DNA of 59,219 nucleotides, filler included, from Jimgerdemannia flammicorona (Eukaryota): assembly GCA_003990765.1 (NCBI GenBank). It is 2 parts of 2 records of this genome, joined end to end, with 100 filler letters (N's around TTAATTAATTAA, not from the genome) between each part and the next. Parts side by side here need not be neighbours in the genome. Positions count along the whole stretch, not along the records: positions 1 to 29,565 come from RBNJ01000486.1; positions 29,666 to 59,219 come from RBNJ01000487.1. One strand, 5' to 3'. The notes below the pieces were generated by a model that did not search any database, was not told the DNA's origin, and saw nothing but the letters and a program-made list of their open reading frames with translations. This document shows positions 5,475-48,781 of the stretch, piece after piece; within the stretch, counting starts at the first letter, position 1; each line of letters starts with the position of its first letter. Position numbers and translations under genes: made by a program.

Positions 5475-6116
5475 ATGATCCAAGCCAAAATGAAGACCAC
5501 GTTATTTAAGGAACCATACTCCACCTCAGGGATCGGCACCAAAGAACCAAGTACCCACTACATAATGCCTCCCATTCGCCGATCCAACCAGACCTCCTGC
5601 CGCTCTACCCCTTTGCCTGGCCCAAAGACTCTGATCTTTGAAGCTATCAAGAAGGCCATCTGGTATCCTGATACTTCCAAACACTTGAACTTCTACACTG
5701 AGGACCTTGGACACTTCATCAACTACTGGTATATAATGACCCAACAGCTCAAAGACTCTACTGAACAAATGACCCTCTGGCATGACTACGAAATCGGACA
5801 CCGCCTTCGCAATAAGACTCAAGAAGACGACCAGGAAGACCTCATTGCTGAAATGTTAACCACTAGCCAGCTAATCAAGAGAGCCCTCTGTGTCCACCAA
5901 ATCTTCCGCCATATTCCCTGGACTATAGCATACTTGCAAGGAGTAATAGCTGGCAGCCTCTCCCGCCTTTCAACTGAAGATGCTGACTGGATAGAATCTG
6001 AAGTAGCCAATGCTATTGGCAGCAACTGCATCGCTATAGGAAGCCAACAAACCGAACCTACTCAGCCAGGTTTCCACACCACCCCACTCTCCGAGACAAC
6101 CATCAAGGTCACCTAA
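5475..6116 (+). CDS. LTR-encoded accessory protein of unknown function (family X), intact frame
   Basis: Open frame containing DLGHFINY..WHDYEIGHRL..EDLIAE..ALCVHQIFRH..IAYLQGV. Homologous to ORFs at 27614, 32471, 44703 and 47963. The true start could be ATG 5475 or 5565. Confidence 0.65.
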   Translation: MIQAKMKTTLFKEPYSTSGIGTKEPSTHYIMPPIRRSNQTSCRSTPLPGPKTLIFEAIKKAIWYPDTSKHLNFYTEDLGHFINYWYIMTQQLKDSTEQMTLWHDYEIGHRLRNKTQEDDQEDLIAEMLTTSQLIKRALCVHQIFRHIPWTIAYLQGVIAGSLSRLSTEDADWIESEVANAIGSNCIAIGSQQTEPTQPGFHTTPLSETTIKVT

Positions 6117-6457
6117 TGAGTCTTATGGAGATATTTGAAGGACCACCCATTACTATAGAAGCACCCATTGGAGCTACCCCAACCACCCACCACCTTGTTA
6201 GCCACAATTCACATCTCATTATTTGGGAACTGAATCAAGAAGAAGCCCAAGAAGTTCCTGTCTTTGAAGAGGAGGCCCAAGAACTCCAAGGCCCTGCCTC
6301 TGAAGAAACCCCCTCTGACACTGAAACTGACGAGTCTTCAGAAGAAGAAGAGGAGCAACAGAGAGTCTACCAGTCCTCTGTCCACATTCAAGCAGTTCAG
6401 GGATTGGAAAATATTGTTGAAGATGACTGGCCACTTTTCTACCCCCTCACCTCTTAG
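6116..6457 (+). CDS. Small acidic ORF overlapping the family X stop (TAATG)
   Basis: 113 aa, Glu/Asp-rich. It may be a frameshifted acidic tail of family X; element F carries an acidic tail in frame. Confidence 0.35.
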   Translation: MSLMEIFEGPPITIEAPIGATPTTHHLVSHNSHLIIWELNQEEAQEVPVFEEEAQELQGPASEETPSDTETDESSEEEEEQQRVYQSSVHIQAVQGLENIVEDDWPLFYPLTS

Positions 6458-6604
6458 CCGGCACTTCCCCCCTTTGAGGAGAGATATGATGAAGAAGAAA
6501 TCACAACCCAGCAAGATTTGCCTACCGCGGACGAAGGGTACTATTCTCTCTAGAGTACCGCCCATCAGCCATGAGAACCCAGCTTTTGTCAGTAAGTCTA
6601 TTCC

Positions 6605-6860
6605 CAGTGTTGCTACCCAGTACTACCATTTTCAGCATTTTTGTCAACAGGTCCGAATTCAGCATTGCCACCCTCCACAACTGTTTCTGGCAACAATCAT
6701 CATATATCATGTCAGCTCATCTGAATTCAGTGTTGCTACCCAGTACCACCGTTTTCAGCATTTTTGTCAGCAGGTCCAAATTCAGTATTGCCACCCTCCA
6801 CAACTGCTTCTGGCAACAATCAGCATTCATGTCAGCTCATCCGAATCCAGTGTTGCTATC
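6605..6860 (+). repeat. ~120-bp tandem duplication in solo LTR U3
   Basis: Units start CAGTGTTGCTA at 6605, 6728 and 6848 (partial). Confidence 0.9.
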
Positions 6861-8219
6861 CCCTACAACCCAATCTGTAGTAAATAATAGCCTGCACCTC
6901 GCATCGTGCAAACCAATAACATAAGTTCACCACAACGTAGTATACCTTAGCTTTAGTCGCACCCCCCCTCCCCCATAGCTAGCAAACTTGTATAAATAAC
7001 CCATATTCTTAGAGTGAATAAAGCCTCAGTCAGACAGTTTTACAGAGAAAACACACTGCCTCCAAGAGACCAGAAAAATTCTGAGAACAAGATAACAACC
7101 TAGAGCAACAGATCGCTCAGAAGTTTGAGTTAAAGAATTTTCTCTTGCTACAGAAAGAAAATGTTACCCGACTACCGCCATTCGGACCGCCGCCATTCGA
7201 CCACCATTCGAGACCTGAGACCCAGCCAAGAATTCAAGACTACAACTGCCATGCATTCAGACTGCCATTCGGACCGCGCATTCGACTGCCATTCAAGATT
7301 CAAGACCCGGAAACCCAAGGATACCCAGCCAAAGGACACTAGACCGCCAAAGACCGACCCACTAGCCTACACGAACGACTGCCAGGAATCTTTCAAGTTA
7401 ACCAAGATGGATGAGCGAGCCATCAATCTCCATTTTCCTGCTGTTATCAATTACTACACGAATCGAACAACCTGTCATATGACCATCGACCCGTGAATGT
7501 CACCAATGCCTTCAGATATACATCGCACACTTCGCCAAGTGGCACATTGAGCCGTGCCAGAAGAGAGATAGGGATACAAACCCGACGCCACAATATATTT
7601 AATATTATAATAATTGATATAATCTCAAACTATAACTAATCTATTTAATAAATCAATTATAATTTATTATAAGTAGAAAGTATACTTAAATAGTCTTCTT
7701 TGGATAAAATATTATTACTTTAATATTTGAATTCAGTATATTAATAATATATTATATATATATATATATTTAAAAAGAGTTTTTTTTATTATTTTTTAAA
7801 AAGATAAAATAAATAAGATTTTAAAAAATAAATTATATGAGATTATAGAGAAATATTAAAAGAATAACTATAATAAATTTTAAATTTATATCTCAATTTA
7901 TTGTCTGTCTATTAAATAAAGAATATTTATAAATAATTTTATTCTAAAATTAAACTAATAAATTTTTTTTTAGAATTTTTTTTAAAAATAAAATAAAAAT
8001 TTAATAAAATATTAATTTAGTTTTGAAATATATAGTACTAATATTTTTTTTAGATCTATTGCTCAAAATAATATAATTAAGATATTTAATCTAATTTTGA
8101 TAAAATTTGTACTTACTTATTTTTATATAGAGCTAGTATTTTTATAATAGTATCAATATACTCTTAAGATAGATATAGTATAGTATAATTATCTTACTAT
8201 AGATTAGGATAATTATATG

Positions 8220-11418: not shown

Positions 11419-11871
11419 TGTAACAGTTCTAGTTTCTTTAAGAGGAAGTGGCTAAATCTGGAAGTTCTGATTGGTCTAAAGTAGCTCAAAGAGATACTTA
11501 AAGATTCAAGTATTCTCAAAGAATTTCTAGGAGAAAATATTCTGAGCTTTATTTAGGTAGAGAATAAGGATATTTATATATGATCTAAAAGAAAGATCTG
11601 GAAAGAAAGAGAAATGCTAAGAAATAGGTTTTTGATAAAGCTGACTAATATTATTCTACAATGTTCTAAAAGGTTCCATAACTAGCTAAGATAAGATACT
11701 TGGTGCCAAAGAAAGACAAGAATGTTCTAGTAGTGTCTGGGTACTGAGAGAAGGTTTCTAAGCAAGTAGAAGGTGATGGAACATAGTAGAATATTCAAGA
11801 AATGTCAAGAAAAGACTAACTAAAAGATACAAAAATATACTAAGACTAAATATGACTGTGAAATTGTTATA
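11419..11871 (-). repeat. 3' LTR of element B
   Basis: Direct repeat of 17047-17510; differences are mostly transitions. Confidence 0.93.
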
Positions 11872-12199
11872 TCCCTCTCTTCTTAAGAATTAACATCCTT
11901 ATTGAGTTTTTAGATAAAACAAGACTAAATATACTTAACCAAAATTTCTCAAACTTATATTAGTATATTGGTGGGGATTGGCCATTCTCATATAGGGCAG
12001 AGGGTCTATTACCAGACTAACCAACTGGGAGGGGTTCAAATCCAGCTAGTAGCCTCATTTTGGTGGACTTCTTATTCATTAAATATTCTGCTGATTCTGG
12101 GGTCCCAAAGTAAACTTCCAATATATAAGGTACTGATCATTACTATAGGTTGTCAATAATTCAAGAAAGTCACTATAGGGATTGGACAATATATTTTAC

Positions 12200-17046: not shown

Positions 17047-17510
17047 TGTAATGGTTCTAGTTTCTTTAAGAGGAAGCAGCTAAATCTAGAAGTTCTGGTT
17101 GGTCTAAAGTAGCTCAAAGAGATACTTAAAGATTCAAGTATTCTCAAAGGATTTCTGAGAGAAAATATTCTGAGATTTATTCAGATAGAGAACAAGGATA
17201 TTTATATATGATCTGAAAGAAAGATCCAGAAGGATCTTGGAAAGAAAGAGAAATGCCAAAAAATAGGTTCTCAGCAAAGCTGACTAATACTATTCTACAA
17301 TGTTTCAAAAGGTTCTATGACTAGTTAAGACAAGATGCTTGGTGCCAAGGAAAGACAAGAATATTCTAGTAGTGTCTGGATACTGAGAGAAGGTTTCTAA
17401 GTAAGTAGAAGGTGATGGAATATAGTAGAATGTTCAAGAAATATCCTGAAAAGACTAACTAAAAGATGCAAAAATATACTAAGACTAAATATAATTGTGA
17501 AATTATTACA
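17047..17510 (-). repeat. 5' LTR of element B
   Basis: TG..CA termini, adjacent to the PBS. Confidence 0.93.
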
Positions 17511-18795: not shown

Positions 18796-19811
18796 CCTCT
18801 CAGTCAAAAGGTCACCACTATGAAGGAAGATGATGAAAACTGTTACAAGAGAATTATAGATAGTTATACATCATATGGACAATATCCTCATTTTATCTGA
18901 ATGTACTATATGAAACATATTGGTAAATGTTATACATGTCTCTCCAAAGTCTTCAAAATCAATTCTGAAAGATGCTAAGCCCAATAGACTGAGGAACCTA
19001 AACAAGACCACTCTCCTTGTAAAGAATGGAGAGAAACTGACTTCAAGGAGACTAATAGCAACTAAGATAATAATAAAGATAAAGAGCTCAACACCAGCAA
19101 GAAGGAGGACAGTTGCATTAAGTTCATAAGTCAAGTTTACAGACAGAATATCAATATCTTACTTGATAGTAGTGCTACTGAAAACTATATTAGCACCAAG
19201 ACTGCCAAGAGGATTAGAGTCTGAAGCAGACCAACTATCAAGAAAAGAAGTGTTATCTTTAGTGATGGTAAGACTATACCACTGACTAAGATCTGTAAAG
19301 ACCTCTTGCTTAGCAGAGGAGGAAGAAGGCCCAGTGGGAGCCAAGGGAGCGAACCCAGAGCCAGTGTCAAAGTGAACGGAAGACATGTGGAAAAGTGTGT
19401 ATAAGGGGGATGAATAAAGAATGTAACCGAATTTACATCAGCCATTTATTGCCACGTAAAAACATGGTCCTTATATACAAAATACGACATCCCAAAAGGG
19501 AGGACACGCCACAACTCAGGGCGAACCGAATTAGGAACCACATGACTGCCGGAAATAGGCGGAGATAAAGGGGGAGCCAATCCCAGTTGCAGGATAAAAA
19601 TCACAAACAAACACAAACAAAACAAATCCAAATCGAGATTAAAAAACATCCACAGACCCTGGAGGGATGAGTGTGAGCGAGGGGTGAGACCGAAACGGAG
19701 CGAGCCACAGTGAGCCCAAGTGAAGTGAGAGGCCGAAGACAGCAGAGGGGAGCGGAGTAAGGCCGAGACCCCAGAGTGAGCACGAGACCCCGGAGGGGGC
19801 AAGGATGTTTT

Positions 19812-21896
19812 TTAATTCTCTCCAGCAGAACCGGAGGTACCAGAAGGTGACGAAAATGCAAAACGAGAGCAATGGATTAAAGAAGAAACAGAAGGAAGAC
19901 GCGAACGAGCAATCAGAGGGTGTTGGGAAAGAGATGAAAGTCCATGGCATGAAAGAGAAGAGCGCAGGACGGTATCAGGGCATTGAGCGACCCAGCAAGT
20001 ATGATCAAATGGTACGATGAGAATCGGGGGTGGGAAAGAAGAGAGGGTACGGAGAGGGTAAGGGGGGAGTGAGGGAAGGGAGGGGGGGTAAAGGGAAGAG
20101 AGTAGGGAAGAGCAAACAACAGACCATTCAACAGAAGCAAGCAGATCACAAATGATAGAAAGAGGGTAGGCACGATGATGGACCACGAAGTTGCCAAGAA
20201 CCCGAACAGCAGACACCCAATCAGAACGATGGGAGCAGCATAATACAAGATGACAAGCCTCACCACGAATATATTCAAGAAGAGTGCAATGAGGATGATT
20301 GGACAAGAAGTCAGGGAACTGTTGGGAATGAGGAAAATGGGAATAAACAACAGTTTGGAAGGGAGAAAGAGAAATAGAAAGGTCCAAAAAGGGAATACTA
20401 GTCATACCACACACCCAAGTAATAGAATGATGGGGAGGGTAAATGCCCTGGAACACACTAGGAATATCAATACCAGCAACAGCGAAGACAATAAAGTCAT
20501 CAATGTATCGGCGAAAGAAGATATCTCTAGCCTGGAATGCAATGGAAAGAGGTAAAGTAATATCACATAACGCACACAATTCGTGGGCCAGGCCAATGAG
20601 GTTGACAAGGGTGGGGGCACAATTCGTACCCATGGCAATACCAGAAGTCTGGTGGAAGGAGCCAAGGGCCGACTCAAAATAATTAGAGCCGCAGACGAGG
20701 AGCATAAGCTCAACAATGGAAGCCAGCGAAACCGGGGAATCCAAAGAAAAAACCAAGGAACCCAAGAAGCGAAGGCAATCATCGATCTCATCAAAACGAA
20801 TAGCAGTATAGAAGGAAGAGAAGTCACCAGAGGCCAAATGGGAAAAACGGTGAACAGGCACAATGGTGGAGCAGAGAAGGGTGAGCTCCTGAGTATCATG
20901 AAGAATAGTATACTCAGGCCCAAGATGGTGTTGTAAGAGAGCCATCCAGGAGAGAAAGAAGCAGGATAACCACTTTGAAATCTCGGTGGTAGGAGAACTA
21001 TAAGAAGCCGTAATAGGATGCCAAGCCAAAACAGGCTTGCGAACTTTAGGAAGAGCATAGAAAACCAGAAGAGAAATATCCGGGGAGGACAAAGAGTCCT
21101 GGAAGAAGTTAAAAATGGGGTTCGCGAATGGGGAATCCGAAAGTGATCTAGCATGAGCCAGAGAAACCCGAAGAAGAGTGAGAATCTCATCCAATCCAAG
21201 AGCACTAGGCTCGTAAGCTGTGGCTCGAAGGAGGGCAGAAAGGCCATCAAGGTAGAGCAACTTAGGAATAAGTACAAAACCCTGATTCTTATCAGTAACT
21301 GTGAGAAAATGCATAGGCAATTGCTTGACCGATTTAAGCGCGGTATGCACAGCATGGTCCGAAACCAAGCAAGAGCAAGCTCATCCAGGAACGGACAGCA
21401 AGCAAGCCATGTCGAGGAATACGCAGTGTGAAGAGACATTGGGAGGAGGGACCCAATCGCTAGGAACAAAATAGTGAGAGGGCATCTCACCACGATCTTG
21501 AAAGAAAATGGCAAGGTCAAGAGCATAACGAAAATGTATTAGACGAGCCGGATCGGTGAAGGAGAATTGTGAGGGAGTCGCAGGAAAAACAAAGTGAGGA
21601 CCCAAGGATAAGGCAAAGACTTGAAGAGGAGAAAGGGGGCAGTCAGCTGAAGAAAAAGGAGGAGACAAAAGAGTTCCAAGAGAAGAATAAAACCGAAAGT
21701 TCAGGACAAGCAACTGGGAAAGACGAAGGGGGGACAATATGAGGAACCACTCAGGGCGCACCAGAAGCGACGACAGAATCCGAGAAGGGACGGGGACACC
21801 GGGGGAGAACCACGCCAAGGGGAAGTTTAAGAGTGGGAGGCCTTTCCCTTCCCTCTGACTTTTTTTGAAGGTGGTGAGCCTGATGAACGGGAGCAC
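19812..21896 (-). pseudogene. Penelope-type reverse transcriptase with one in-frame TGA (21381-21383)
   Basis: LSPLQVFALSLGPHF, TDKNQG, FYALPKVRK, GDFSSFYTAI, QTSGIAMGTNCAP, RYIDD, PFLDL and a thumb SNHP..IRGE..RAYP. The ORFs 21381-21896 and 19812-21368 share a frame. Confidence 0.88.
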
Positions 21897-30566: not shown

Positions 30567-30802
30567 ATGGATTTTTGAAATTGGAGTTTTTTATAATGAG
30601 ATAATAAAAAAATAAATAGCCGGTTCGTTTCCCCTTCAGGATTTTTAGCCTAGGTGCAATAACTTGAGTACCATCAACCTCAGCTTCAAAATAAAAGTTC
30701 TGGTATAACAAACATTTCCCCTAAGAAATATAAAAACTATATAAATCCAAAACCCAGTCAAAATGAATTCAAAAAAAAAAAAAAAAAAAAAAAACAAAAA
30801 AA

Positions 30803-30847
<45 letters not shown>

Positions 30848-32009: not shown

Positions 32010-32471
32010 CTATTCAAACTCCCAGACTTCAACTGTCTGTATGATCTTGTACTGTGCAATTTGCTGTATGACTGTTTCCCAATGATGTCTTCTCACTTTC
32101 TCAAAGTCAGTGGGGGTTACTCTTCTCAGGTGGTCTATTGCTGGTTCATCCTCTCGGAATAACTTGTGGATTCTTTTGGCAATAGTGATCTGTGAGTGGG
32201 AGAGTTGACACTCAGCAATCCAGTCCTCTTTGGTTTTTGCTGGATCCTGATTGAGCACCTGTCTAAGCTTGAAGTACTCTTGGAATTCTGCCTGATATTG
32301 ATAGGCTCTAAAGTGCGAGATCTAAGAGAGATAAGTCTACACAATACTCTGAATATCCTCATAGTATGCCTCTATGGTTAGAGGCTCAGTAGTGTGCCAT
32401 TGTCTTTCAATGGCTCTTTGGGCAGCACTAGTGATCTTGAGTATCATTGCAGTGCTTTGGTTATTGGCCAT
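32010..32471 (-). pseudogene. ORF3 (family X) of element D in env position
   Basis: The ATG overlaps the pol end (YHGQ*). 153 codons with two internal TAG: FQEYFKL.QVLN..EDWIAE..SQITIAKRIHKLFRE..AIDHLRRV. Confidence 0.75.
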
Positions 32472-35400
32472 GGTACTTCTTGAGTCGGTTTTGATGAATA
32501 GTGGTGGAGATTATTGTGCCTGAGGGCTTTTATAGCCAGAAAGTAGTCCCTTTTATATCTTGCACCAGATAAGGTCCTTCCCACTTGGGCTCTAGTTTTC
32601 ATGATCAAGAGGCTTCTACCATATTCTGATACACCAGGACTTCATCTCCTATCTTGATAATCTCCAGGGGCTTATGGGTTTTTTCTGCATTATTCCATTG
32701 CAGTGTCTGCACCTTGATTATGTAATCCTCTGCCTTTTTCCTGATCTGGTGCAATCTCCATATCTCCATATCCACATGCTTCCAAATTGCATTATTACTT
32801 GCTGACAAACTTCCACCAAAACTTTCTTCACTGAATAGCATTTCTCATGGTATAAAATGGGTGCTTTGTGATCATATATCCTGCAGAGTGGATAATGCTA
32901 TTGGAAGATAGTGGTCCCAGTTTCCGTATTCATCACAGATCTTGGCAATGATATTCTTGAGGGTCTTGTTGGTTCTCTCTGCTTGTCCATTTCCTTATAG
33001 GTGATATGCAGTGGTCTTGATGTGTTGGATCTTATACTTCTTATAAAGAATCTCATGAAACTGGTTGACAAATTTTGTTCCTCTGTCTGTGGTAACTTGC
33101 TTTGGGGTCTTGAATCAGCAGATGATTTCTTTGTGCAAGAAATCGGCAATTGACTGTGTATTGGCTTCCTTGAGTGGTCCAGCCTCTACCTATTTTGTAA
33201 ACAGGTCTACTATTATAATAACACATTGGTTGCCAGTCAATGTCAGGGGTAGGGGGCTGATTACATCCATTGCAATGTGGATAAATAGTATCAGTTCAAT
33301 GTCTGCTGATCCAGAGGCTTGATCTCGTCAGTCTTGTTTCTGTTTCTGGCATTTGTCACAGGTCCTGACAAATTGTCTGATATCTTCTTCCATTCTGGGC
33401 CACCACAAGGTTCTTCTTGCTTTGTCAAATGTGTTTGTTCCTCCTATGTGACTTTGTTCGTGTATTTCTTTCATTACTTGATTCTTCCGGTGCTCGAGGA
33501 TGACTAATTGTTGTCCTTTCTTAAGTATTTCTCCATCAGTTTCGAATTGTTTCCATGTCTGATTAATAATTGTTTTTGTCCATTCTTCCAGATACGGGGG
33601 CATCTTTTGCTGCCCCAGGTAGCTGATGATTCCATAATACAGCTCTCTATTCATGGTAATTTCATGGGAGTGGGGTCCTTCGGGGTGTCTATGAGAGGGT
33701 GTCAGCATTGGCATTGGTTCTTCCAGGGTGGTGGGTGATCGTGGTATCGTATGCTTGCAGCTTCATGATCCATCACATATAGATTCCTTTGGGCTCACTG
33801 GTAGTGAGCAATCAGGTGAGTGCCAAATGATCTGTCTGGATAGTGAAGTATCTGCCAGCCAGATAGTAGTAGAACTTCTCCATAGCCCAGATGACTGCAA
33901 GGCATTCCAACTTATATGATTCATAGGACTGCTCAGCTCCTCGGGTACCTCGGCTGAGATAAGCTACCATATATTCAGTACTATTTTTCTTTTATGCAAG
34001 GATAGCTCCAAGTCCCATTGCACTGGCATCTATCTGCAGAATAAACTCTTGAGTCTAGTTAGGTCTTCTCAGGATTGGGGCCTGGATCAATCTGGTCTTG
34101 AGCTCGTCAAAGGCTAGTTGCTGCTGCTGAGTCCACTGAAACTTGACCTCTTTTCTGAACAGATCATAGATAGGACTGGTGATGTGGGAGAACCTTCTGA
34201 TAAATATTCTGTAGTAGGATGCAAGTCCCATGAAGGCTTGGGCTTCAGTGATACTGGTAGGTACTGGGTATGCTGCTACTGCTTTGATCTTTGTAGGGTC
34301 TGTATGTATTCCTTCACAGTTGATAATATATCCAAGGTATGCAGTTTCTTCTTCTCCAAACTTGCATTTCTTGGGCTTGATGTAGAGGCCTTGTTTATGA
34401 AGCCTTCTGAGAATTTTCTTGATATGTTCCAAGTGCTCCTTGGCAGTTTGGCTGAAGATGATCACATTATCTACATATACCATCATCCATTTTTCCATAA
34501 CATCCCTGAAGATGCTATTCATTATTCGCTGGAAGCTTGCTAGTGCATTGCACATTCCAAAGGGCATGCAAAGATAGACATAGGTTCCATCAGGAGTGAT
34601 GAAGGCTGATCTTTTGCTGGCTTCAGGTGTAAGGCCAATTTGATAGAATCCTGAGAACAGATCCAGAGTGGTGTAGAATCATGATTCATTCTCCAGCATG
34701 ATAAGAATATCACCAATATTGGGCAACAGTTGTCTGCCCTTCTCTGTGACCTCATTGAGTCTTCTATAATCTGTGCAGAGTCTTGGTACAAACTCTCCTG
34801 GTTGGCTTCCTTTCTTTGGTACAAGGATGATGGAGGAGGACCAAGGGCTACTGGCTTCCTTTCTTTGGTACAAGGATGATGGGGGAGGACCAAGGGCTGC
34901 TGGCTTTCTCAATGATACCAGATTCCTCCATTTCCTTAATCTCCATCTTGAGCCATTCCCTGTATGCTGGTGGAATGGGGCAGGCCTTTTGATAGATTGG
35001 CTTTGCATCTCCAGTATTGATATTATGATAGTACAAAGGTTTCTTGGTCTTAATGTCCTTGAAATCTGTGGCCAGTATATCCTTGAATGTATGCAAGAGG
35101 CTCTGCAATTCTTCCCTTAGGGGAAAGTTCCTTCCAATTGTATAGATGTATTTGTCTTGACTTTTCTCCTTCTTGTGCTCCAACTCAGTGATCTTAGTTG
35201 CTGCAAGGACTCCTCTTCCTGTAGAGCCGAATCCAGCCCTTCCTCACTGAGTTTGTCTGATGTTCGCAACCTCCTTGATCCTTGGATTAAGGACAGGTAG
35301 GATGAGCATTTGTACCAGCTGATCCTTCTTCCTTACTTCAAATGGAATGGTTGGGTTGTGGTTCCTGGTGAGGAGGAGAATTTCTCCCATATAGTCTGAA

Positions 35401-37683
35401 TCAATAACTCCTCCTTCTATCGATATTTCGCTCTTTGCTAAGCTACTCCTTGTCTTGAGGATTCCAACATGATTTGGCAGAATGATTACTTCAATTCCTG
35501 TTCCTAGAATGGTGGTGGTCTGTGGTTTGAGTATTGTGTATGTTGTGGTAGATAGGTCCATTCCTGCTGCATTCTCTGACTTGTATTGTGGTATGACTGC
35601 ATCAGGGTGAATCCTTCATATCTTGACTGTGATATCTTCATCCTCATCATCACTGTCATCTATTAATTCTGGTGGTCTATCTTCTAGTTCCTCCTGGTTC
35701 TCCTTTGGCTTGTTGGTGATCTTCTTCACCTCAATGATACAAGAGTAGCAGTGATCCAAGTGCTGGGCACAGTACATTCTTTCACCATAGGGGCACCTTC
35801 CTAGTGGGGCATATCTATCTGCGATTCTCATATATCATTCTTCTTCTGTCATTTGCTTGCCTTTTTCTTTCTTTGTAGTAACCATGTAGGCTTCTTCTTC
35901 TTAGTCTTCCTCCATCTCAGGGCAGGCTCCTTTGTGGATATTGATGGGAATTCTGATCTTTTTTCCCCAGTAGATGATCTGTATCTTCTGTGCACTGAGA
36001 TTGATCATGGCCTTGGCTTTGTGAAGCCACTGATTACTGATGAGGATATCATAGTTGGTTGCATTGGTGACAATGACATCCACAGGGATAGTGGCCTCTC
36101 CAAACTTGATTGGTATGTCTTGGATCTTTCCCAAAGGTGTTGCTCATATGTATTCCATCAGCTGTGACAAATACCAGTTTGGTGGCTTCTTCTATTTCCC
36201 AGCCTAGGTAGTCTACTGCTTTCTTAGTGATGAGACATCCTCCTGCTCCCATATCAATAATGGCTTCGAAGACTCGATCCTTGATCTGGCAGGTAGCATA
36301 GGCTGATGTTTTCTGATTATCTTCACTCTCTTTATCTGAATCTTCTTGTGCATTATTGGCTTTGATTATTTTCCAACCTTGGTCTTTGCCGATATCTGAG
36401 ATTCCTGTCCTCATTTGTTGTCTGAAGGTTGGGATTTCTGCTAGTTGGCTGAAGGTTGCATTGACTTTTTGGTCCTTGAGGTCCTTAAAGATATCATACT
36501 TGAAGGTCTTGCTCTTACGCAATCTCTGCTCCTTCTTCCCTTTACTTAATGGGGTGGTGTTTCTGATGATATCTTCTACTACTCATTCAAGTTTAGCATC
36601 TTGTTCCAGCTCCATATCTTGATCAGCTTCGCTCTGCTGGTTCTCTTTTTCGATGACCATTTCTGGTTGTCTTGTTTGTATCTGGGTCTTCTTAAGAGGT
36701 CTGCCTGGAGGTCTTTTGTAGGGACTGGATCAGACATCCTTCTTGCTTGAGGTGGCAGGGTAAGCTTCCCATTCCTCCCTTTCTTTCTCAGATTTTCCAG
36801 TCTCCTCGAAGGTAATAGTGTTTGCTTATTCATGGTTCCTGGTTGCATTGCTTAGATTGGCCTTTTGCTTGATTTCTGTCATGCATTCGGAGGCATAGTG
36901 GTCTTCTTCTCTACAGTTATAGCATGTTACTGATTGTCTTACATTTATAGTGGTAAACTTCTGTACTGGCTTCTTCTTGAACTCTTTGACTACATCACTA
37001 AGGTGTGCAGTCATTTCTGTAAACTGTTTGGCCAGTTCCTCCATTGGGTCGACCCTTCTCTGGTCTTGTGGTTGTGGTTGTGTATTCCAGTTGACTATAG
37101 TAGCCAGAATTGTATTGGTGACCCTTAGTGCTTGTTTGATTTTTACTCCAGTTATCCTTTCCATTGTATGGCCTTGAGGGTGTCTGGCAGTCCAGTATCT
37201 TTGAGCATAGGTAACCTTCTGTCCCAGATCTAGTAGTGTTGGAATAGATCGAATGGCTAAAGCGATTTCTTGGTGAATGCCTTTCATAAAGGTATTCTCA
37301 GCCACTTGGTCTTGAACTGCATCAGGGTAATCAGCAAGAACTATTTGATGTCGGATTCTTGTATAGAATGTGTTTTGGTCTTCAGACATTCCTTGGCAGA
37401 TAGTATTCAGTTGATCTTTGAGTGCCTGTTTGATTTCATCTGTATAGTAGGTTGCTTGGAGCCAGGTCTTAAAAGCTATAATTCTTGCTGGATCATCAGC
37501 TGCTTGTACATTGGCTGCAGTAAATGTGGTTCTTACTGGGCCTCGGAGGTTTACAGAGAGTAGGGCTACTTGTTGTGCTGCACTTAAGGTCCTTATAGTG
37601 GTATACTGCTCAAAATCATCAATGAAGATGATGATTGATTTGTCAGATGTATATCCATGGAATATGGGGAGTCTCATATCCAT
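32461..37683 (-). pseudogene. gag-pol pseudogene of element D (dUTPase ~35215-35630)
   Basis: ORF-track fragments: gag 36826-37683, IIDMGAG protease, TRSSLAKS..GGVIDSDYMG, MPFGMCNA, CDKCQKQK. Confidence 0.92.
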
Positions 37684-38924
37684 TCTATCTAATTGTGTTG
37701 TGTGGGTTCTGGTTGTGGTTGTTTGTTATTCAGCTTAAAAGTGAGGGATTCATCTTGAATCACCAGCCAATAGGCACCAAGTTGTAATATAGTGGATACT
37801 AAGGTAGGTAAGTATATCAGATTTCTTTATCTTGAATTCTTGTCTTCTTGACTCTCAGAGTCAGTAGTTCCTTGAGGTCAAATATGTTTAAAGAGGTAAT
37901 CCCGAAGATCCTTTTATTAGTATACTTGTTCTTTTTCTAACACTTTCGATCTGAGGTTTATTCACTCTAAGATACTGAGTTATTTATACAAGTTTGCTAG
38001 CTATGCGAAGGTGGCTAAGTAATAAATGAGTCATTTAGACTTTGTCAAAATATTTGGACAATGTCTAAATACTATACTAAATTGGGATGTTTGATTTGGA
38101 TGATGTCTAAGAATTTAGACAATATCTAAGAATTTAGACAATATTGAAATTGAGGACTGCTAACTATAAGGCTATACTACTTTGGGACTGGGTGTGATCA
38201 AGTGTCTATTCCCTATTTCCTTCTTCCAAATTTGGCTGTACCATTACAGTAGCTAGAAGAGTTATAAACTAAGAATTCAAAGGTAAAATCAAGGTCTTGC
38301 TATATAATACTAGATAGAAAGTAGTTGAAATTATATGTAGAAAATGAATCATCTAAGCCATTATCAAGATAATATATAATAATCTTAAAGTTGAAGAAAC
38401 AAATGAACTGTCATCTCTTAATAGAGGAGAAAAAGCTTTTAGATCAATAAAAAAACATCCTGACAAGACTAAGAAGAAGACTAAGATATAGAAAATTATT
38501 CAAATATTTGAAGAATCTCCAAAAATGATATTAGCACATTACTGATAGATATATTTCAACAGAATGATATTATTATAGAATCAAGATATACTATTTTAAA
38601 TATATAAAAGAATATATTATATATATCTTTGATTTTAATCCAAGAAGTATAAGCTAATTATTTCAGAATAATAAGACAAAGAAATTAAGAATATCAATAA
38701 TAAAGATAGAGATATATAAGATTGAAAATAAGAAGTTTCTTCTTCAGAAATAATTACTATCTAGTAAGATACTAACTCTGAATATATCTATCTATAAGGA
38801 AAAATTAAAGAAACTCTGTTGAAGTTCTAATCAATAGTAGAGTATATATGTGCTACCTTAACAAAAAGACTACTGACAAGTTCAGACTTAAGATATAAAG
38901 AAACCCAGAAGGAAATATTACTAT

Positions 38925-41900
38925 TGTGATAGTTGATCTAAATTAGTAATATAAATTAAGAGAATAGACATTTGATTGCAGTATTTGAATCTAATTTCCA
39001 AATATAGTATAGTCTTACAAATAGCAGTCATATTTCACAAATGTAGAAATATTTAACAAATGTTAAAGTATTCACAAATATTGAGATTTTACAGATATTA
39101 AAGTTTTGATAATTATTAAAGATTTAATAGATATTAAGGATTAACATCTGTAAAAAATAACTTATAGAAAGCATAGTCATAACTTAGTCTCATATTTAAT
39201 AGTAGAATTAATATACAAATCTATATAAATATCTCTAGTATCTAGAGTGAATAAACCTTAGATCAAAATAGTTCAAAGCAAAGAGAAAGTAAGAGAACTA
39301 GTAAGTCTACAGACAGATATACTTCAAACTCACCCACTCCTATCACTGCAGAGTCAAAGAAGATCAAGTTTTTAAGATACAAAAATCTAGCATACTTATA
39401 CAGTTATGTATCTGCTATATTATAACTTAGTACCTATTAGCTGGTAATTTAAGATAAATATCTCACTTTTAAGCTAAATACTAAACAATAATTGCTACCA
39501 TCTGAACAACTATACAAATTGAATCAAGATATTCAGATAAGATAAATATAAGACCACTAGTATTCTACAGATATATTTCAGATGAATTGATCATCACATT
39601 TATTGATAACTTTGAGTAGTATGCTGCTCTAAGGATCTTGACAGTAAGACAGTAAGTAGCCCTTATGCTCTTCAGTCTCTGAGGACCAGCAAGAGTAGTA
39701 TTTATAGCTATAACCTATGTAGAAAATAATTATAATACTATACTAGCAGTACAGAAGGCCTGGCTCTGAACCACCTACTATATAGATAAGATCAAACAAG
39801 CTCTGAAAGATTAGCTCAATATAATATATCAAGGAATGAGCAAGGATCTAAACACATTTTACACTAGAATCAGATATCAGATAATTCTTACAGATTATGC
39901 TATTGCTATCTGAAATCAAGTAGCAGAAGTAACCTTTATAAAAAAGGTTTACTTAGAGATATATAGCCCTGACCATCTGCTCATTACTAGTGGTTCTAGA
40001 TCTAGTACAAAAGGTTACCTATGCTTAGTGATACCAGATAGCTAGACATTCATAAGACTATATAATAGAAAGAGTTACTAGAGTTAGAATCAAAGCACTC
40101 AAGACAACTAGCATAATCTCTACTATAGTAATTAATTAAAATATATCTTAGCAAAGCTACAGAATAATAGAGAAATAGTGACACTATAGAGGAACCTATT
40201 AAGAAGTTTGCTAAAATAACTACCCATCTAGGAGACGTGGTAAAGAAAATTAGAGAAAGAGACTGCTGCCTAGTTCAGAAGTTTGCTACCATCTCAGACA
40301 AGAAGAGAGATACCTGCTACATCTGTGGAGAAGAAGGCCACTACTCATATGAATGTATAAGTGAAACCAAGTGCAAGGTTCAGCCAAGCAATGCTACTTG
40401 AAATAAGAAACAGACCAACACTATTACCTTCAAGGAGATTGGAGAATTGGATGAAAAAAAATGAGAAGTCTATCTTACTGAGACTATTAAGAAGGATGTC
40501 TGCAAGAACTCTACAAGAGACCACTAGAGAGACCCAAGAAGAACCTTGTGGAAAAACAGATAAAGACTACTATAGAAGGCCAAGCTGAAGAAATAGATCA
40601 AAATATAGAACTAGAACAGGCTGTTTAAGATATCATTCAAAGGAACTACCCTAGCCAGTGAAGGAGAAAAGAAGAAAAAGTTTCACAAAACTAAGACCTT
40701 TAAGTATGATATCTTCAAGAATCTCAACCAATAAAAGGTCAATATAATTTTTGACTAGCTGGTAGAAATACCCATATTCAGATAGCAAATGAGATATAAA
40801 CTTACTGAGATAATCAAGGAGTAAGATTGGAAGATAACTAAGGCCAATAATATTCAAAAAGACTCTGGAGAAGAAAGTGAAGAAATTATAAGATCTTTGT
40901 TTATGCAATCTATCAGATTGAAGATAGAATCTTTAAAGTCATCATTGATAAAAGTAAGAGGATGTTTTCTCAGCAAGAAAGCAGTAGACCACCTAGGTTG
41001 AGAGGTTAAAGAAATAATCAAATTAGTATTTGTTACAGCAGATAGTACAAGAGCCACATCTTTAAAAAAGATCTGAGATATTTCCATTAAGTTTGAAAGA
41101 GCAATAATCTCAGTAGATATGATTGTAACCAATGCAACTAACTATGATATCCTTATTGATAACTAGTGACTTTATAAAGCTAAGACAATAATCAACCTGA
41201 ATGTCCAGAAGATGCATATTATCTACTAAGATCAGAAGATATGAATTTCCATCAATATCAACAAAAGGGTGCTGTCTGAGATAAAGAAATAAGAAAGTGA
41301 GCAAAAAGAAGCCTATATGATAACTACTTAGAAAAAGAAAAAGAAGATTGAATTGATTAGTAAAGAGAACTGGTGCAAGAGGATTATAGAAGGATATACA
41401 CTATAAGAAGTTTATCTCCATAGAATTAAGATATACTGTATGGAGTATATCAATGATTACTACTAGTGTACCAGTAGTATCAAGAATATCTACTATAAAA
41501 AAAGACAAAAGGCTCTCAAAAAGTAGACAAGAGAAAAGAAGAAAAAGGAAGAGAATGATAAATCACCAATCCTTCTGGAAGACAGTGATGATGAAGAAGA
41601 AATCAAGGTCAAGATTCACAGGATCTACTCTGATGTAGTTTTATTAGAATACAAGTCAGAAAATGCAACTAAAATGGATATTACTACAGTAGAAAAAACT
41701 ATACTCAAGCCCCAGATAACTACCCTACTAGTAACTAGTCTGGAGATAACTATTTCAAAAGACTATATTGAGATTCTCAAGATAAGAAGCAGCCTGGCTA
41801 AGAGTGAGATTATGATTGAAAGAGAAGTTATTGATTCAGATTATATTAGAGAGTTACTATTTATTGCCAGGAATCACAACTTTATAATTCCATTTCTAAT

Positions 41901-44900
41901 CAAGAAGAAGGACTGATTGGTATAGATGTTGATCTTCTCAGTTCTTCAGTCAAAAATCATGAAAGTCAAAAAAGTTAGAGAAAACAGAAAGAGAAAAGAA
42001 AGAATTTGGATCTATAGAAAGAGGAGTATTCATTAGCACTAAGACCACCAAACTAGATTACAGAAAGAAGAAAACCACAAATAAGTATAGCTATAATATT
42101 AGAGATGAATTCCTGCTTAAGAAAGAACTTAAGAAGATACTTTATAAATTCAAGAATATCCTAACCACAGACTTTAAGGATATCAAGAGAAAGACTCCAC
42201 ACTACTATCATGATGTAGATATAGAGGACACCAAACCAATCTATCAAAAAGCAAGACCAATACTGCCAGCCTACCATGAATGGCTCAGAGAAAAAATCAA
42301 GCAGATGGAAGAAGCTGATATCATCAAAGAAGTCAGTAGCCCTTGGGCTTCACCAGTTGTACTAGTCCTAAAAAAAGGAAGCAAGTCAGGAGAATTCACC
42401 CCAAGACTCTGCACTGATCACAGAAAGCTTAATCTGATTACCAAGAAGAATTGTCAGCCATTGCCTCTCATCAGTGACATTCTTGTAACCTTAGGAGATA
42501 AAATACAGTATTATAGTATCTTGGACTTATATTCAGGATTCTATCAAATTAACCTCATAGAAGTAGTAAGTGAGAAGTCAGCCTTCATCACTCTAGACTA
42601 AACCTATATCTATCTATAAATATTATTTAGAATATATAATACACCAGCAAGCTTCTAGTAAATGATGAATAAAATATTCTGCTATAACATAAAAGGATAG
42701 ATAATGGTCTATATAGATGATATTATTATTTACAGTAAGACAGCTGAAGAATATCTACAGCACATCCAGTAGATAATGGAGAAGTTAAGACAGTATGACT
42801 TATACATCAAGCTGAAGAAGTATAAATTTGGAGAAATTGAAATCTCCTATCTTAGCTATATCATTAACTGAAATAGAATATATACAGACTCTCTTAAGAT
42901 TCAAGCAGTAATAGCATATCCAAGGCCCACCACAGTTACTGAAGCCCAAGCCTTTATGGAACTTATCTCTTACTACTGTAGATTTATCAAAGAATTCTCC
43001 AATATTGCAGACCCAATCTACAAACTCAACAAGAAGGATGTCAAGTTTCAATAGATCAGTAGATAACAGAAAGTATTTGATAAGCTCAAGATCAGGCTGA
43101 CCAAAGCACCCATCCTCAGAAGACCAGATTGGACTCAGAAATTTATCTTACAGACAGATGTATATACACAAGAACTAAGAGCAGTCCTGGCTCAGAAGAA
43201 AGATAAAATAGAATATATAATTACATATCTCAGCTAAGAAACCCAAGGAGCTGAAAAAGAGTATGAATCTTATAAGTTAGAATATCTTACAGTTATCTGG
43301 GCTATAGAGAAGTTCAACAACTATCTCACAAAAAGACACTTCACTATTCAGATAGACCACTCAGCCCTTACTTAGCTACTGATCATCAGACAATCCAAAG
43401 GAATCTATGTCAGATGGATTATGAGGTTATAAGCTTATAATGTAACCATTATGTACTGCTCTGAAAGAACTAATATCAATGTAGATACCCTCTTATAGAT
43501 ACTTTAAAGAACTCTCAATCAACAAATCAACTATAAATAAAAAACTCTACTATAGAATTATCACCTATTTGGAATAGTAAAAGATGCTCTGATATCTAGA
43601 AGAATGGACATAAATGGTTATTAACAGAATATAGAAGCAATTTGAGACTAATAGAGAAATACTAAAAAAGAAAAAGCTACTAGTCATACCCAAATACAAG
43701 AAGGATTAAGCAATAAAATTAGTATATGAACTAGCTATTTAGGAGGAACAAATATATATAATAAAGCAAGAAGGATAATATGGTAGCCAGGAATAGAGAA
43801 AGATATCAGATGATTTGTCAAATATCAGAAATAAAAACAAGATCAACAAAATCAAACTCCTGGATCAGCATATATAGAACTAGTACTCTTTATATATAAT
43901 GTAATAGATATAATTGGTTTTCTATCCTTAACTTTGACTAGTAACTGATATATTATTATTATCATAGACCTTTTTACAAAACATATAAAGGCAGGATCTC
44001 TTAAAGAAGCTAATGTATAGTCAATTGCTGATTTCTTTTATAAAGAAATTATCTGCTTATTTAAGACCCCATTGCAAGTAACCACAGATAGAGGAACAGA
44101 ATTTGGGAACTAGTTCTTTGAGGTTCTCTACTAAAAGTATAAGATCTAGCACATTCAGACTACAGCCTATCACCTTTAGAGAAATGGACAAATAGAAAGA
44201 ACCAACAAGACTCTCAAGAATATCATCACCAAGATCTATAATAACTATGAAAACTAGGATCACTATCTGCCAATAGCATTATCTACTCTTTGGGATATCT
44301 GATCATAAAGTACCTATTTCACCCCCTGAGAGATACTGTTCAGAGAAGAAAGTTCTCAAGGAATCTTATTATTCAATAGAGATACTATATGTAAATATAT
44401 AGATACAGAAATATGAAGACTATACCAAATCAGAAAGATGGTCCAGGATTACATAACCAAGATACAAGCACTATAATGGAATAATGCAGAAAAGATTCAC
44501 AAGCCTCTGGAGATTATTAAGATAGGAGACAAAGTTCTAGTATATTGAAATATAGTAGAAGCTTCATAGTTGCAAAAGCTGGAGCCTAAGTGAGAAGGAT
44601 CTTACTTGGTGTAAGATATAAAAGGAACCACCTTTTGACTATAAAAACTCTCAGACACAATCATCTCTACTACTATTTACTAAAACTAACTTAAGAAGTA
44701 TTATGACTAATTAATAAAGTACTACTATAGTCCTCAAGATCACTAGTGCTATACAATAAGCCATGGAAAGACAATAGTATACTACTGAACCACTAATTAT
44801 GGAAGAATCCTTTGACAGTATCCAGAGTATAATTCATATACACTTGTCACAAATCTCACATTTCAAGGTCTACTAGAACTAGACTAAGTTTTAAGAATAC

Positions 44901-45712
44901 TTCAAGTTGGGACAGCTCTAAACTTATAGCCAGAGTTAGAAAAAGAAGACTAAATCAGAGAATATCAGCTCTCTCATATTCAGATCACAATTACTAAATG
45001 AGTTAATAAGCTATTTAAAGATGATGAGCCAGCTCTAGCTTATTTCTAAGGAGTAGTTCCAGAATACTTTAAATATATTAAGAGATAGTATTGGGAGAAT
45101 GTAATAATACAAATTATATAGTATAATGAGATACAAATTATAGAAGCTTGGGAGTTCAAGTGAATGAAATATTTTAGAGATAAATCACCTATTCAGAAGA
45201 AAGTTGTGATGGTTGATCTAAATTAGTAATATTAATCAGAAGAATAGATATTTAATTATAGTATCTGAATCTAATTCTCAAATATAATATAATCTTACAA
45301 ATAGTAATCATATTTCATAAACATAGAACTTTAACAAATGTTAAATTATTCACAAATATTGAGATTTTACAGATATTAAAGTTTTGATGATCATCAAAGA
45401 TTTAACAAATATCAAGAATTAATACTTATAAAAAGTGACTTATAGAAAATATAGTCATAACTTAGCCTTATATTTAGTAGTAGAATTAGCATACAAATCT
45501 GTATAAATATCCTCAGTATCTAGAGTGAATAAACCTCAAATTGAAATAGTTTAAAGCAAAGAGAAAGTAAGAGAACTAGTAAGTCTGTGGGCAGATATAC
45601 TTCAAACTCACTTACTCCTACATCTCAAAGACTCTGCAGAGTTAAAGAAGATCAAGTTTTCAAGATATAGAAATTTAATATACTTATATAGTTATGCATT
45701 CACTACATTATA
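38925..45712 (+). mobile_element. Full-length Ty3/Gypsy element E (relative of D, more decayed)
   Basis: LTRs 38925-39424 and 45205-45712, 4-bp TSD CTAT, same PBS/leader and domain order as D, dUTPase ~41600-42020. Confidence 0.93.
44703..45163 (+). pseudogene. ORF3 (family X) of element E
   Basis: LKITSA..EYFKLGQL..QITITK*VNKLFKDDEPAL..EAWEFK*, orthologous to ORF3 of D. Confidence 0.7.
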
Positions 45713-46577
45713 CTATATTTAGAAATAAAAACAACTTAGAAACTCTTTAAAATCTGCAAGAATGTACTTCTAGATATATATCATCAGACAATAGTCTCTA
45801 TATATCTCAGCAGAATGATATAGCTGAGTAATTTAACTATATAGCTATAGAAATATATATATAATATTTAATATAGCTATATTGAGTATTTTTATTAGAC
45901 TAAAGTTATAAATATAATAATTTACATCTATAATCATTATATATTTTAAGTATTGAGTAAAGATTTCAGTAATAATAAATACTTCAGAGATACTGGTCAT
46001 ATATCTGAGAAATTATAGAGTAGAACTAAGTCAGATATATCTTATTTGTATATCTTTAATTGCAAGATCTATATATACATATACTTAATAAAAGTAATAC
46101 TAATTAATATAAATTTGAGTCAAAAGTTGATAAGTAAATATTTTTAGAATATAGTGACAAATCTTATTAGATCTGGAATATTAAGAAATAATATATAGTT
46201 TTAAGAAAAAAAAGAAGATTAAAAATCTTATATATATATATACACTCATCAGAACCTCTACATCTTAGCTAGTATAAATGTAACAGTTAGCATAACTATC
46301 ATCCTCATCTTCAACTACTCTAGTAGTAAAGAAAATATTTTTTTCAAATATAGCTAATTAAAAATTATTCATAGCTACAGCCAGAGATATCTGAGTTAAG
46401 AATAATAATAAAAATGACAAAGCCTCTAGTGATGAGGAATTCTCTATAAAAATCAAATAAAAGTGATCTAATATTTGCTAAAAACTTATTCTGAATTAGA
46501 AAATTATTAGAATACATTAATAAGCTCAGATGGTAATATAATAAGAACCATATGAGTTATGCTGATATATCTATACC

Positions 46578-46802
46578 TAGTACTCTCAATAAATTGAATT
46601 GAATCAAATTTGACCCAAATTTAATTTAATTTAATCAAATCAAAGATCTAATTCAATTTGAGATTTAATTCAAACACTTAATTTAATTTGAATTTGATTT
46701 GATTTAAACATGATTTAAATTGAAAAAATCCCAATTCAATTCAATTTGAATGACTCTCAATTTGATTTGATTTGAATTGATTTGATTCATTTTGGAGTAC
46801 TA
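46578..46802. mobile_element. hAT-like MITE (225 bp)
   Basis: TIR TAGTACTC..GAGTACTA, 8-bp flanks TCTATACC/TCTATATC, internal TTCAA/TTGAT microrepeats in inverted arrangement. Confidence 0.65.
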
Positions 46803-47962
46803 TCTATATCTCTTTCTACTATACTGGTTATAAAGTTTTAATAGATAATCTTCTAAGTCTCTTTTCTATAACTTTTACTCCCTCTATCTCAGATTAGTTT
46901 GTTATACCTATTGCAGAATAGTGAGAGAGAGGTAATTATGATGAGTTGCTCCTTTATTAATATCAGATTAGTACTTTTCTCACTTTTTTATAATTTCTGA
47001 ATCTCTGGCTATATCTGAGATATATCTGTTTTAGTATATGTAGCATCTTCTTTCTTTTGTTGTCATCAATAAGATATTGTTATAGTATATTATGGACTAT
47101 ATAGAGAGTCAGCTAATCTTAGACATCAAGTACCAGTATAGGTTACCTATAGATTATCAGTATCTATAGTAAAGTTCTCTGAGTTTTGACAAGCTTTCTG
47201 ATAAGTATAGTTCTGATATAGGTAACTACTTTTTAAATAGTATCAGGATGAGAGAGGAGATAGCTATTATAGATAAGTAAAAGGATAATTATAGTACATT
47301 AGTTGAGTATTAGGCTAATAATAGTTATTGGGATTATTATAGATACTACATCAGTAAGATCTTCTAATTTGTACAGAGTAGTTAGATATATAGTAGATAT
47401 TACTCATAGTAGCTCTTAGTAATATGTGAGATTAGACTTCAGTTGTTTGAAGGCCTAAGATATCTGGTTAGCTATACTTAACTAGAACTAGGAGCTGATA
47501 TAGTAATATAATTGAGACTTATAGACTTAAGTAGTAGAGTATTGAGAGTCTTCTCTCACTTTATATATAAGTTCTTTACTTACTCTATCAGAGAGAACTA
47601 GATCCTATTCACTGTTTTGTATCTTTTGGAGAATTTTTTCTTTATCTGTTGCTCTATTTGGGGTGATAGAAGTTTTGCTATATATATATATATCTAACTC
47701 TGATATGGTCTTATATATATTGTAATAGTGACCCCAGAATGATGACATCAGCACTAGAGATAGCCTTTTCTTGCAAGCCACCAGATCAGAGTACAAGAAG
47801 ATCATACAGCATATGAGATGAGCAATGATGATCAACTGTGAGTCATTGTGACCACAGCACAAGCATCCTGAAGAATATAAAAGAAGGATCAAGGAACCAC
47901 AGTAGCAGCAACCAACAAGAACCACCAATCCCAAAATAGCTCAAAGATTTACCATAAATGAA

Positions 47963-48781
47963 ATGCCTACTGCCTGCCAAACCTCAAGGTCAAGGAATCA
48001 CCAAGGTATCTTGGTCAAGGAAAGGATGTTCCAAGACATCAGAAGAGCCATGAGGACCTGCTCAAGAAGGACTCCTAGTGTCAACCTGAGTACTGCAGAC
48101 CCTTATCACTTCATTCCCTACTGCCATGAAATGGAAACAAGGATTACTATTGCTACTGAATGCCTCCAAATATAGCAGGAGTATGAAATAGGAAACCTCC
48201 TCTGCTGGGAGTTCCCACAAGCCAGTACCCAAGAGCTACAAGATGCCACTCCCATGGATATATATGAAACAAGGACAGCTAAGAAGATTCATCAGATCTT
48301 CAGGCATGCACTATGGTCGATCCCCAACTTAGAGTATATTAGAGTCTCAGACTTCAGAGACCTATCATCCCGCCATATCAATGCACTAGAAGCCAGGGTG
48401 GCTACAGAAGCCCAGTCCACTATCACTCTCAATAGTGAAGAAGTAGAAGACTTCTGGCACCCTATCCTTCAGGACAACCCAGACCAATTCCTGCAAGGAT
48501 TGATCTCAGTATTCTAAGGCCCAAGTATCCAGGTTAGATCTCTCCAAGACCCCACATTTGTTCCCTATTTTGTGGAAGAGAACCTCATAGACTGGAGAGC
48601 TCCAGATCTTGTTCCTGATTTTCCCACCACAGCTGAATGTGATGACATCATTGGCGATGACGTCATCCCATGTGACATTGACATATGTGAGACACATAAC
48701 AAAGCATGTAAAAATGACGAATTCACAGATCTCATCTCCTTCAGTGATGATGATGACAAGGATGAAGCTCTCAGGTCCTGA
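47963..48781 (+). pseudogene. Family X accessory ORF inside the LTR of element F
   Basis: ORF-track pieces 47963, 48254 and 48572 share one frame, broken by TAG/TAA: DPYHFIPY..QEYEIGNLL..TAKKIHQIFRH..IPNLEYI, plus an acidic tail. Confidence 0.75.

Follow-up and report, generated by a model that had tools for sequence, protein, structure and literature searches.

An accessory protein family encoded behind pol or inside the long terminal repeat of Ty3/gypsy retrotransposons in Jimgerdemannia flammicorona

We analyzed a 59,219-nucleotide (nt) stretch of the Jimgerdemannia flammicorona genome (GCA_003990765.1), here called the window, which joins parts of two records (RBNJ01000486.1, positions 1 to 29,565; RBNJ01000487.1, positions 29,666 to 59,219). 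The window is a nest of long terminal repeat (LTR) retrotransposons, lettered A to F, beside a host peptidase M24 gene (154-2068, Pfam scan), and a single protein family, which we call X, is encoded at six loci there: A, C, D, E, F and a truncated F-type copy (Table 1). In D and E, X is a sense open reading frame (ORF) between pol and the 3′ LTR, and in A, F and the truncated copy it lies inside the LTR itself. We are confident that X is a real, selected accessory gene. From the motifs around it, the LTR-borne form probably makes up its own transcription unit within the LTR, and we propose tentatively that X is the accessory gene of a small fungal Ty3/gypsy clade with dUTPase in pol, acting as a trans regulator. 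An initial annotation of the window had listed five copies of the family, LTR-borne or at the place of env, and had called X a selected retroelement accessory factor; homologous frames are present at every place that it named, the truncated F-type copy brings the loci to six, and the selection analysis below bears the description out.

Translated searches (tblastn) inside the window linked A to F over 145 amino acids (aa; E = 2.9e-10) and to C (E = 6e-5), and D to E (E = 3.6e-21), with weak matches of A or F to D (E = 0.009-0.12). Intact relatives from other assemblies found the same loci, the long-type relative P0005 matching F (9e-46), C (2e-27) and A (5e-22), and the short-type relative P0009 matching D (8e-78), to which it is 78% identical, and E (6e-40). 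The kinship of the long, LTR-borne form with the short form found behind pol (the third-ORF, or ORF3, position) holds because the match between their profiles (hhalign; long type n = 7, short type n = 3; probability 92.7, E = 4.1e-7, score 50.4, 113 columns) stands far above its controls: 100 column shuffles scored at most 20.9 (E at least 0.028), the reversed alignment scored 16.4, and the X profile against gag gave E = 0.3 for D gag and 0.44 for F gag. The motif blocks W/F-x-D/E-Y, ED-x-I-x-E and A-x-x-x-H-x-I/L-F-R are spaced identically in A and D. Both the shared protein pattern and the LTR-to-ORF3 similarity that had been suggested for these copies are thus upheld. A gag origin of X was considered separately and is rejected on the two gag comparisons.

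Other parts of the initial annotation had to be amended. It held that DNA is not visibly alignable between the families, which holds for X of D and F, but D and E align at 66.7% identity over 6.2 kb and the gag-pol regions of D and F at ~69%. It also took the A copy to be intact, which it is not fully, because a 2-bp insertion at 6087 is absent from the related contigs of sequencing runs X1 and X2 (DNA contigs labelled soil metagenome). The insertion shifts the frame relative to 325-aa relatives: residues 1-177 of P0001 match 5565-6095 and residues 171-314 match 6077-6493, with the N-terminal domain intact and the acidic tail read in a different frame after 6087. Neither tblastn within the window nor a search with intact relatives found X in element B, and no X was found at 55063-56400, downstream of the F 3′ LTR remnant.

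Elements were defined by self-comparison and by Pfam scans of the 179 stop-to-stop ORFs of at least 70 aa. D, E and F are Ty3/gypsy elements with a CCHC gag, protease, dUTPase (between protease and reverse transcriptase, RT), RT, RNase H and integrase, and B also has dUTPase between protease and RT. Chromodomain models matched none of the 179 ORFs, and the earlier suggestion that X spans chromodomain and non-chromodomain lineages is accordingly left unconfirmed. GC content swings from ~28% to 54% along the window, and TA/AT exceeds 1 where the sequence is AT-rich, which is what repeat-induced point mutation in fungi is expected to leave. Elements E, C and B are heavily mutated (GC 0.31-0.42, TA/AT > 1), with C-to-T and G-to-A changes in E, and A, D and F are nearly unmutated (GC 0.41-0.48, TA/AT 0.59-0.77). 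Even the clean A copy carries mild G-to-A and C-to-T mutation relative to the X1 and X2 contigs; against the X1 contig these differences number 36 + 33, and those in the opposite direction 14 + 13.

In D and E, the X start codon sits in an ACCATGG context and overlaps the last four codons of pol, and the X stop codon falls 37-40 nt (37 nt in D) ahead of the polypurine tract and 3′ LTR, the latter at 31972 in D and 45204 in E. The motif formed by the polypurine tract and the LTR start is confined, at up to 6 mismatches, to three sites, the 3′ LTR junctions of D, E and F. The arrangement of X in D and E, that of a sense additional ORF (aORF), is not shared by A, F and the truncated copy, where X is placed inside the LTR.

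Table 1. Coordinates of elements, X copies and LTR signals in the window
Feature	Position	Strand	Remarks
Element A, solo LTR, 2235 bp	5358-7592	+	TGTGA...CCACA ends; 4-bp target duplication ATAT; no gag-pol
TATA-like box of A, TATTTAA	5503-5509	+	56 nt before X ATG; aligns with GAATATAAAAG of other LTR-borne copies
X of A, long type	5565-6493	+	tblastn with relative P0001; stop-to-stop frame 5451-6116
Two 99-nt direct repeats of A	6605-6826	+	123-nt spacing; 93% identical; between X and second TATA
Second TATA box of A, TGTATAAATA, then GTGAATAAAGCC	6989-7025	+	TATA 6989-6998; AATAAA 7017-7022; downstream of X
Element B	LTRs 11419-11869, 17047-17508	-	Carries dUTPase
Element C	pol end 26935		5′-truncated
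C-type LTR fragment	27251-27874	+	Ends ~27873 at inverted integrase fragment
X of C, mutated N-terminus only	27613-27874	+	ATG now ATA
Truncated F-type LTR	29184-29565	+	92% identical to 47712-48103
X of truncated F-type copy	ATG at 29425	+	First 47 codons; LTR begins 29184
Element D	31507-38248	-	LTRs 31507-31972, 37783-38248, 92% identical; 4-bp target duplication CTAC
X of D, short type, 153 codons	32471-32010	-	2 internal TAG stops
Element E	38924-45712	+	LTRs 38924-39424, 45204-45712; target duplication CTAT; same family as D
X of E	44703-45163	+	Heavily mutated; 1 frame change near 44910
Element F, 5′ LTR, 1516 bp	47721-49236	+	End set by LTR-terminus and primer-binding-site homology to D
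TATA box of F, GAATATAAAAG	47873-47883	+	80 nt before X ATG
X of F, long type, 272 codons	47963-48781	+	Internal stops TAG at 48173, TAA at 48515
Second TATA box of F and degenerate AATAAA block	48998-49037	+	Downstream of X
F polypurine tract and first 122 bp of 3′ LTR	54926-55062	+	Match to 5′ LTR ends 55062

We identify A as a solo LTR with X inside because of its TG...CA ends, its 4-bp target duplication, a size also made by D and E, and the purine-rich tract that, in a related contig from run X2 (loose end at 5369), directly precedes the same LTR start in the manner of a 3′ LTR junction. A has inserted into an AT-rich inverted repeat (4454-4896/8033-7593), in the right arm; the other arm keeps the empty site. 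The repeat as a whole (4454-4970, 5283-5350 and 7593-8033) has a GC content of 0.15, with ~500 bp per arm and a ~310-bp loop. In F, X is wholly within the LTR at 47721-49236, whose end, together with the primer-binding site after it, is homologous to that of D. The LTR start leads without a break to the X start both in F and, independently, in the truncated F-type LTR. X of C, ~315 nt past the end of C pol (26935), is probably also in an LTR, judging from the surrounding sequence.

Between C and the truncated copy (27873-29183) lies a second C-like integrase fragment, made of an inverted piece (28220-27873) and then a direct piece (28224-28969), and the F-type LTR at 29184 begins ~215 nt after the latter; this layout may reflect LTR exchange between pol lineages or plain nested insertion. 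At the other end of F, unrelated and unmutated sequence (55063-56400; GC ~0.43, with a poly(A)/K-run) replaces the 3′ LTR. Two ideas about the origin of the LTR-borne form fared poorly. That X came into the LTR when the polypurine tract simply shifted upstream is not supported, since neither the A nor the F LTR contains a vestigial motif downstream of X. Derivation of the LTR-borne leader from a D-like pol 3′ end was rejected: a single comparison of ten beat nearly all shuffles (reached by 3/500), the other nine being reached by 45-340 of 500 shuffles.

The LTR-borne copies have a TATA box 56-90 nt before the X start codon and a conserved leader directly preceding it. The box GAATATAAAAG is identical in F, the truncated copy (29336-29346) and L002, one of two metagenome contigs with complete X ORFs, and its counterpart in the other, L001, is CTATAAAAG. 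Downstream of X, TGTATAAATA followed by GTGAATAAA-CCTCAGTCA is common to A, F and L002 (three of the four sequences aligned); in A, TATAAATA occupies 6991-6998, within the LTR that the target duplication flanks. X of A and of F therefore has the layout of a gene in the U3 (unique 3′) region, inside the LTR and upstream of the predicted genomic-RNA TATA box and AATAAA. We infer from these motifs that the second TATA block would provide the promoter and R (repeat) region of the genomic RNA. The 99-nt repeats between X and this block in A vary in copy number among A-related contigs, with joints that skip 184 and 189 nt, and L001 has a ~30-nt GTCAGGCGGAAC...TCAGAACA motif on both flanks of X (172-200, 1471-1506). 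Such direct repeats near X in the LTRs of A and L001 may be enhancer-like.

Database searches recovered 13 short-type relatives (P0009, 153 aa, and twelve more) and 15 long-type relatives (among others P0001, 325 aa; P0005, 214 aa; P0006, 342 aa; P0008, 247 aa). Intact members of 153-342 aa occur in other assemblies, where they are labelled 'hypothetical protein' or are nameless. The L001 and L002 loci were fetched with a 7-sequence alignment, and their ORFs (291 and 323 aa) are intact though only ~45% identical to each other in amino acid sequence. The X family is evolving under purifying selection. In all six pairs formed by A, F, L001 and L002, the proportion of non-synonymous differences (pN, 0.30-0.51) is below that of synonymous differences (pS, 0.69-0.82), and differences by codon position rank 3 > 1 > 2; the comparison of non-synonymous with synonymous change (dN/dS) proposed in the initial annotation thus came out on the side of selection. 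Each of the four stops inside X of D and F lies one C-to-T or G-to-A change away from a residue seen in relatives, those of F at 48173 (TAG) and 48515 (TAA) each being one transition from W and Q of P0008.

X resembles no described domain in our searches, a match that would have counted against the initial annotation. Pfam returned no family for any of seven full-length X proteins at E up to 1, nor, at E up to 0.01, for the window ORFs that carry X, and the best match in a sequence-profile search of the PDB had E = 0.59. With an X structure model of only 67.8 predicted local distance difference test (pLDDT) score, Foldseek found no PDB match at E ≤ 0.001 and a wide VIA-align search gave a best Z of 4.4; the BFVD structure search with an X model had no matches, and the best ESM Atlas score was 0.88, under the 0.9 lead level. 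The models are all-helical at middling confidence (pLDDT 67.8 and 60.7), and our guess from them is that the X core may be a new all-helical domain of ~130 aa. The 19-aa Kyte-Doolittle mean peaks at 1.09 over the full set (12 of 12 proteins), and the N-termini (first 20 residues) are hydrophilic, in agreement with the earlier statement that X has no signal peptide or transmembrane segment, the features of an env-like ORF3, and is not env-like. The N-terminal part is near neutral (isoelectric point, pI, 5.1-6.8). In the long forms it is followed by a proline-rich linker and then an acidic tail studded with hydrophobic residues (net charge −15 to −27, 19-26% Asp + Glu, 9-13% Pro), which closes with a common motif, two hydrophobic residues and then LNF; the short form has a conserved acidic-aromatic C-terminal stretch (WEFE).

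In the mechanism that we propose, LTR-borne X would occupy U3 as a unit of its own TATA box, leader and ORF, followed by the AATAAA of the LTR; the genomic RNA would be driven from the second TATA box, just ahead of that AATAAA. As the unit would be self-contained in the LTR, every LTR, solo LTRs such as A included, could make X without gag-pol. X would then serve its own family in trans, as an adaptor or positive regulator. In the simplest version it would activate transcription from the LTR, using its acidic tail to recruit host machinery, in function like foamy-virus Tas or Tax of human T-cell leukaemia virus (HTLV). This activator or adaptor mechanism is possible but doubtful. A similarly speculative extension is that each long LTR, solo copies included, could be an autonomous gene for a family-wide trans regulator, a retrovirus-style gene of independent origin that has moved between the ORF3 and U3 positions.

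Several observations weigh against this account. At E ≤ 0.001 only 6 of 1.84 billion representatives matched X, a small family, which leaves the alignment shallow and the confidence of the structure models middling. The omega values (0.13-0.40 in the four of six pairs with finite dS) are rough because dS is saturated, and infinite in the other two pairs. No full element in the window has X in both LTRs, the 3′ LTR of F keeping only its first 122 bp, and the start set for the C LTR (27251) is a weak one, placed at the onset of L001 homology and a TGT. Transcription of X, its start sites and its polyadenylation are predicted from motifs alone. For an activator in particular, the helical domain, at pI 5.1-6.8, is not basic, searches with Foldseek, VIA and BFVD recognized no DNA-binding fold in X, and the short X of D and E is without the long acidic tail, having only the WEFE-type end.

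Other roles can be weighed against a positive regulator. The functions put forward in the initial annotation, anti-silencing, copy-number control and targeting, are guesses and are among those considered here. X might be a means of copy-number control, a dose-dependent inhibitor made by every LTR that cuts transposition as LTRs accumulate, in the manner of the Ty1 restriction factor p22. A cassette that looks autonomous and persists in solo LTRs would let dose track LTR number, and X is under purifying selection; known factors of this kind are, however, derived from gag, to which X shows no similarity (hhalign E as given above), and in D and E X lies outside the LTR, where dose would not follow solo LTRs. 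We judge copy-number control unlikely. Suppression of host genome defence, by which X would shield family transcripts or DNA from RNA silencing, heterochromatin or repeat-induced mutation, seems to us quite improbable. The mixture of heavily mutated and nearly unmutated copies side by side in the window indicates that these elements live under strong defence pressure, and retrotransposon-derived small RNAs are abundant in some fungi, as reported in the portion of PMC8365987 considered; yet X has no recognizable RNA-binding or known suppressor fold (Foldseek, VIA, BFVD), the X-carrying copies are mutated like the others, and the idea is purely circumstantial.

We give about as little credence to X as a particle or integration cofactor that binds Gag or integrase, for example as the targeting subunit of a chromodomain-less integrase. 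The overlap of the X start with the end of the integrase frame in D and E would suit coupled expression, none of the 179 ORFs matched a chromodomain and the acidic tail could bind basic partners, but LTR-borne X appears uncoupled from gag-pol expression and a missing chromodomain in mutated pol genes is weak evidence. LTR retrotransposons do capture extra ORFs (PMC5408684 and PMC7264820, in the parts considered), and X could in principle be a captured passenger, beneficial to the host or hitch-hiking, with no role in the element. That is very improbable for a gene kept in several diverged element families, at two positions and under purifying selection, and the six matching representatives were all on short contigs, none with a family name or Pfam domain. 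Finally, most window copies have stops or frameshifts, as chance open frames in related repeats would, but it is scarcely conceivable that X is no gene at all, given intact ORFs at ~30-45% amino acid identity, the pN/pS and codon-position bias in every pair, conserved motif spacing and a profile match far above shuffled controls.

Extra genes of LTR retrotransposons are known, but few have an assigned function. If the LTR cassette is expressed, solo LTRs would be working genes and not inert scars, with dose following the history of the element. This would give a directly testable handle on retrotransposon self-regulation or defence evasion in a repeat-mutating fungus. The family is also a natural experiment, with the same gene placed in U3 by some element families and ahead of the polypurine tract by their close relatives.

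The window has further features apart from X. A GC-rich (0.48-0.54), unmutated unit at 19312-23811 has split repeats, direct (19312-19651/22985-23324) and inverted (19316-19816/23811-23311), and on its minus strand a 522-aa frame with reverse-transcriptase-like motifs (GIAMGTNCAP ... RYIDDFIVF) together with proline-rich frames. The 522-aa frame has no Pfam match at E ≤ 0.01, and the unit looks like a DIRS/Ngaro-type or other non-LTR-type retroelement. A 56-bp unit repeated in tandem forms satellite-like arrays at 56372-57090 and 58404-59208, with both orientations represented. An AT-rich, unannotated tandem duplication of ~1 kb (8220-9195/9786-10776) is 74% identical with a spacing of ~1570 bp, and long A-rich runs occur at 1557-1725 and 30703-30870, reaching ~80 consecutive A near 30780.

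Among known systems, protein genes that fall within U3 or overlap it, and that the provirus therefore carries at each end, are familiar from sag of mouse mammary tumour virus (MMTV) and nef of the human and simian immunodeficiency viruses (HIV/SIV). X is likewise placed in the U3 part of the LTR, but it has no sequence or fold similarity to these proteins (BFVD search), seems from its motifs to have its own TATA box, sits in a fungal retrotransposon and has no transmembrane segment, unlike MMTV Sag, which is a membrane glycoprotein. The transactivators Tas/Bel1 of foamy viruses and Tax of HTLV are products of 3′-terminal regulatory genes. X is 3′-terminal as well, and its layout of a structured N-terminal and an acidic C-terminal part is activator-like; no homology to them was detected, the helical domain of X is not basic, and the likeness is one of layout and composition.

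Among fungal elements, the brtn gene is reportedly an additional gene of Boty-like retrotransposons (Zhao et al. 2011, Virology 417:248). The Botrytis elements that carry it are described, in the parts of PMC4227169 and PMC8365987 considered, as having brtn antisense, a chromodomain and 5-bp duplications, and unnamed additional ORFs are reportedly also drawn for Botrytis elements (PMC8365987, Figure S1). Both brtn and X are, on those partial accounts, accessory genes near the 3′ end of fungal Ty3/gypsy elements. X is not an antisense gene, because in D, E and F it shares the strand of pol, and its elements have dUTPase, 4-bp duplications and no detected chromodomain, features that set it apart by description only. 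Fungal Ty3/gypsy elements with dUTPase have been described from Postia, Phanerochaete and Tuber (Tmt1) in PMC2864245, and B, D, E and F share with them, so far as that account was compared, the dUTPase between protease and RT. An LTR-borne gene is undescribed there, in a comparison that covered the text and not the supplementary tables. Our literature search, which did not reach the brtn paper and some supplements, found no fungal LTR-embedded protein gene.

Sense aORFs between pol and the 3′ LTR of Ty3/gypsy elements have been reviewed for plants (PMC7264820), and an 'add. ORF' of unknown function is drawn for fungal elements (PMC2864245), in the sections of each that we considered. X of D and E has the same position and orientation and is conserved among copies, but it is a different family from those covered in these sections, with no Pfam match and no env-like character. 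It is also found inside the LTR in sister families, an arrangement undescribed in the same sections of PMC7264820 and PMC2864245. This comparison suggests that, as a sense ORF 3′ of pol, X is of an already known kind, to which it adds an LTR-borne form in fungi.

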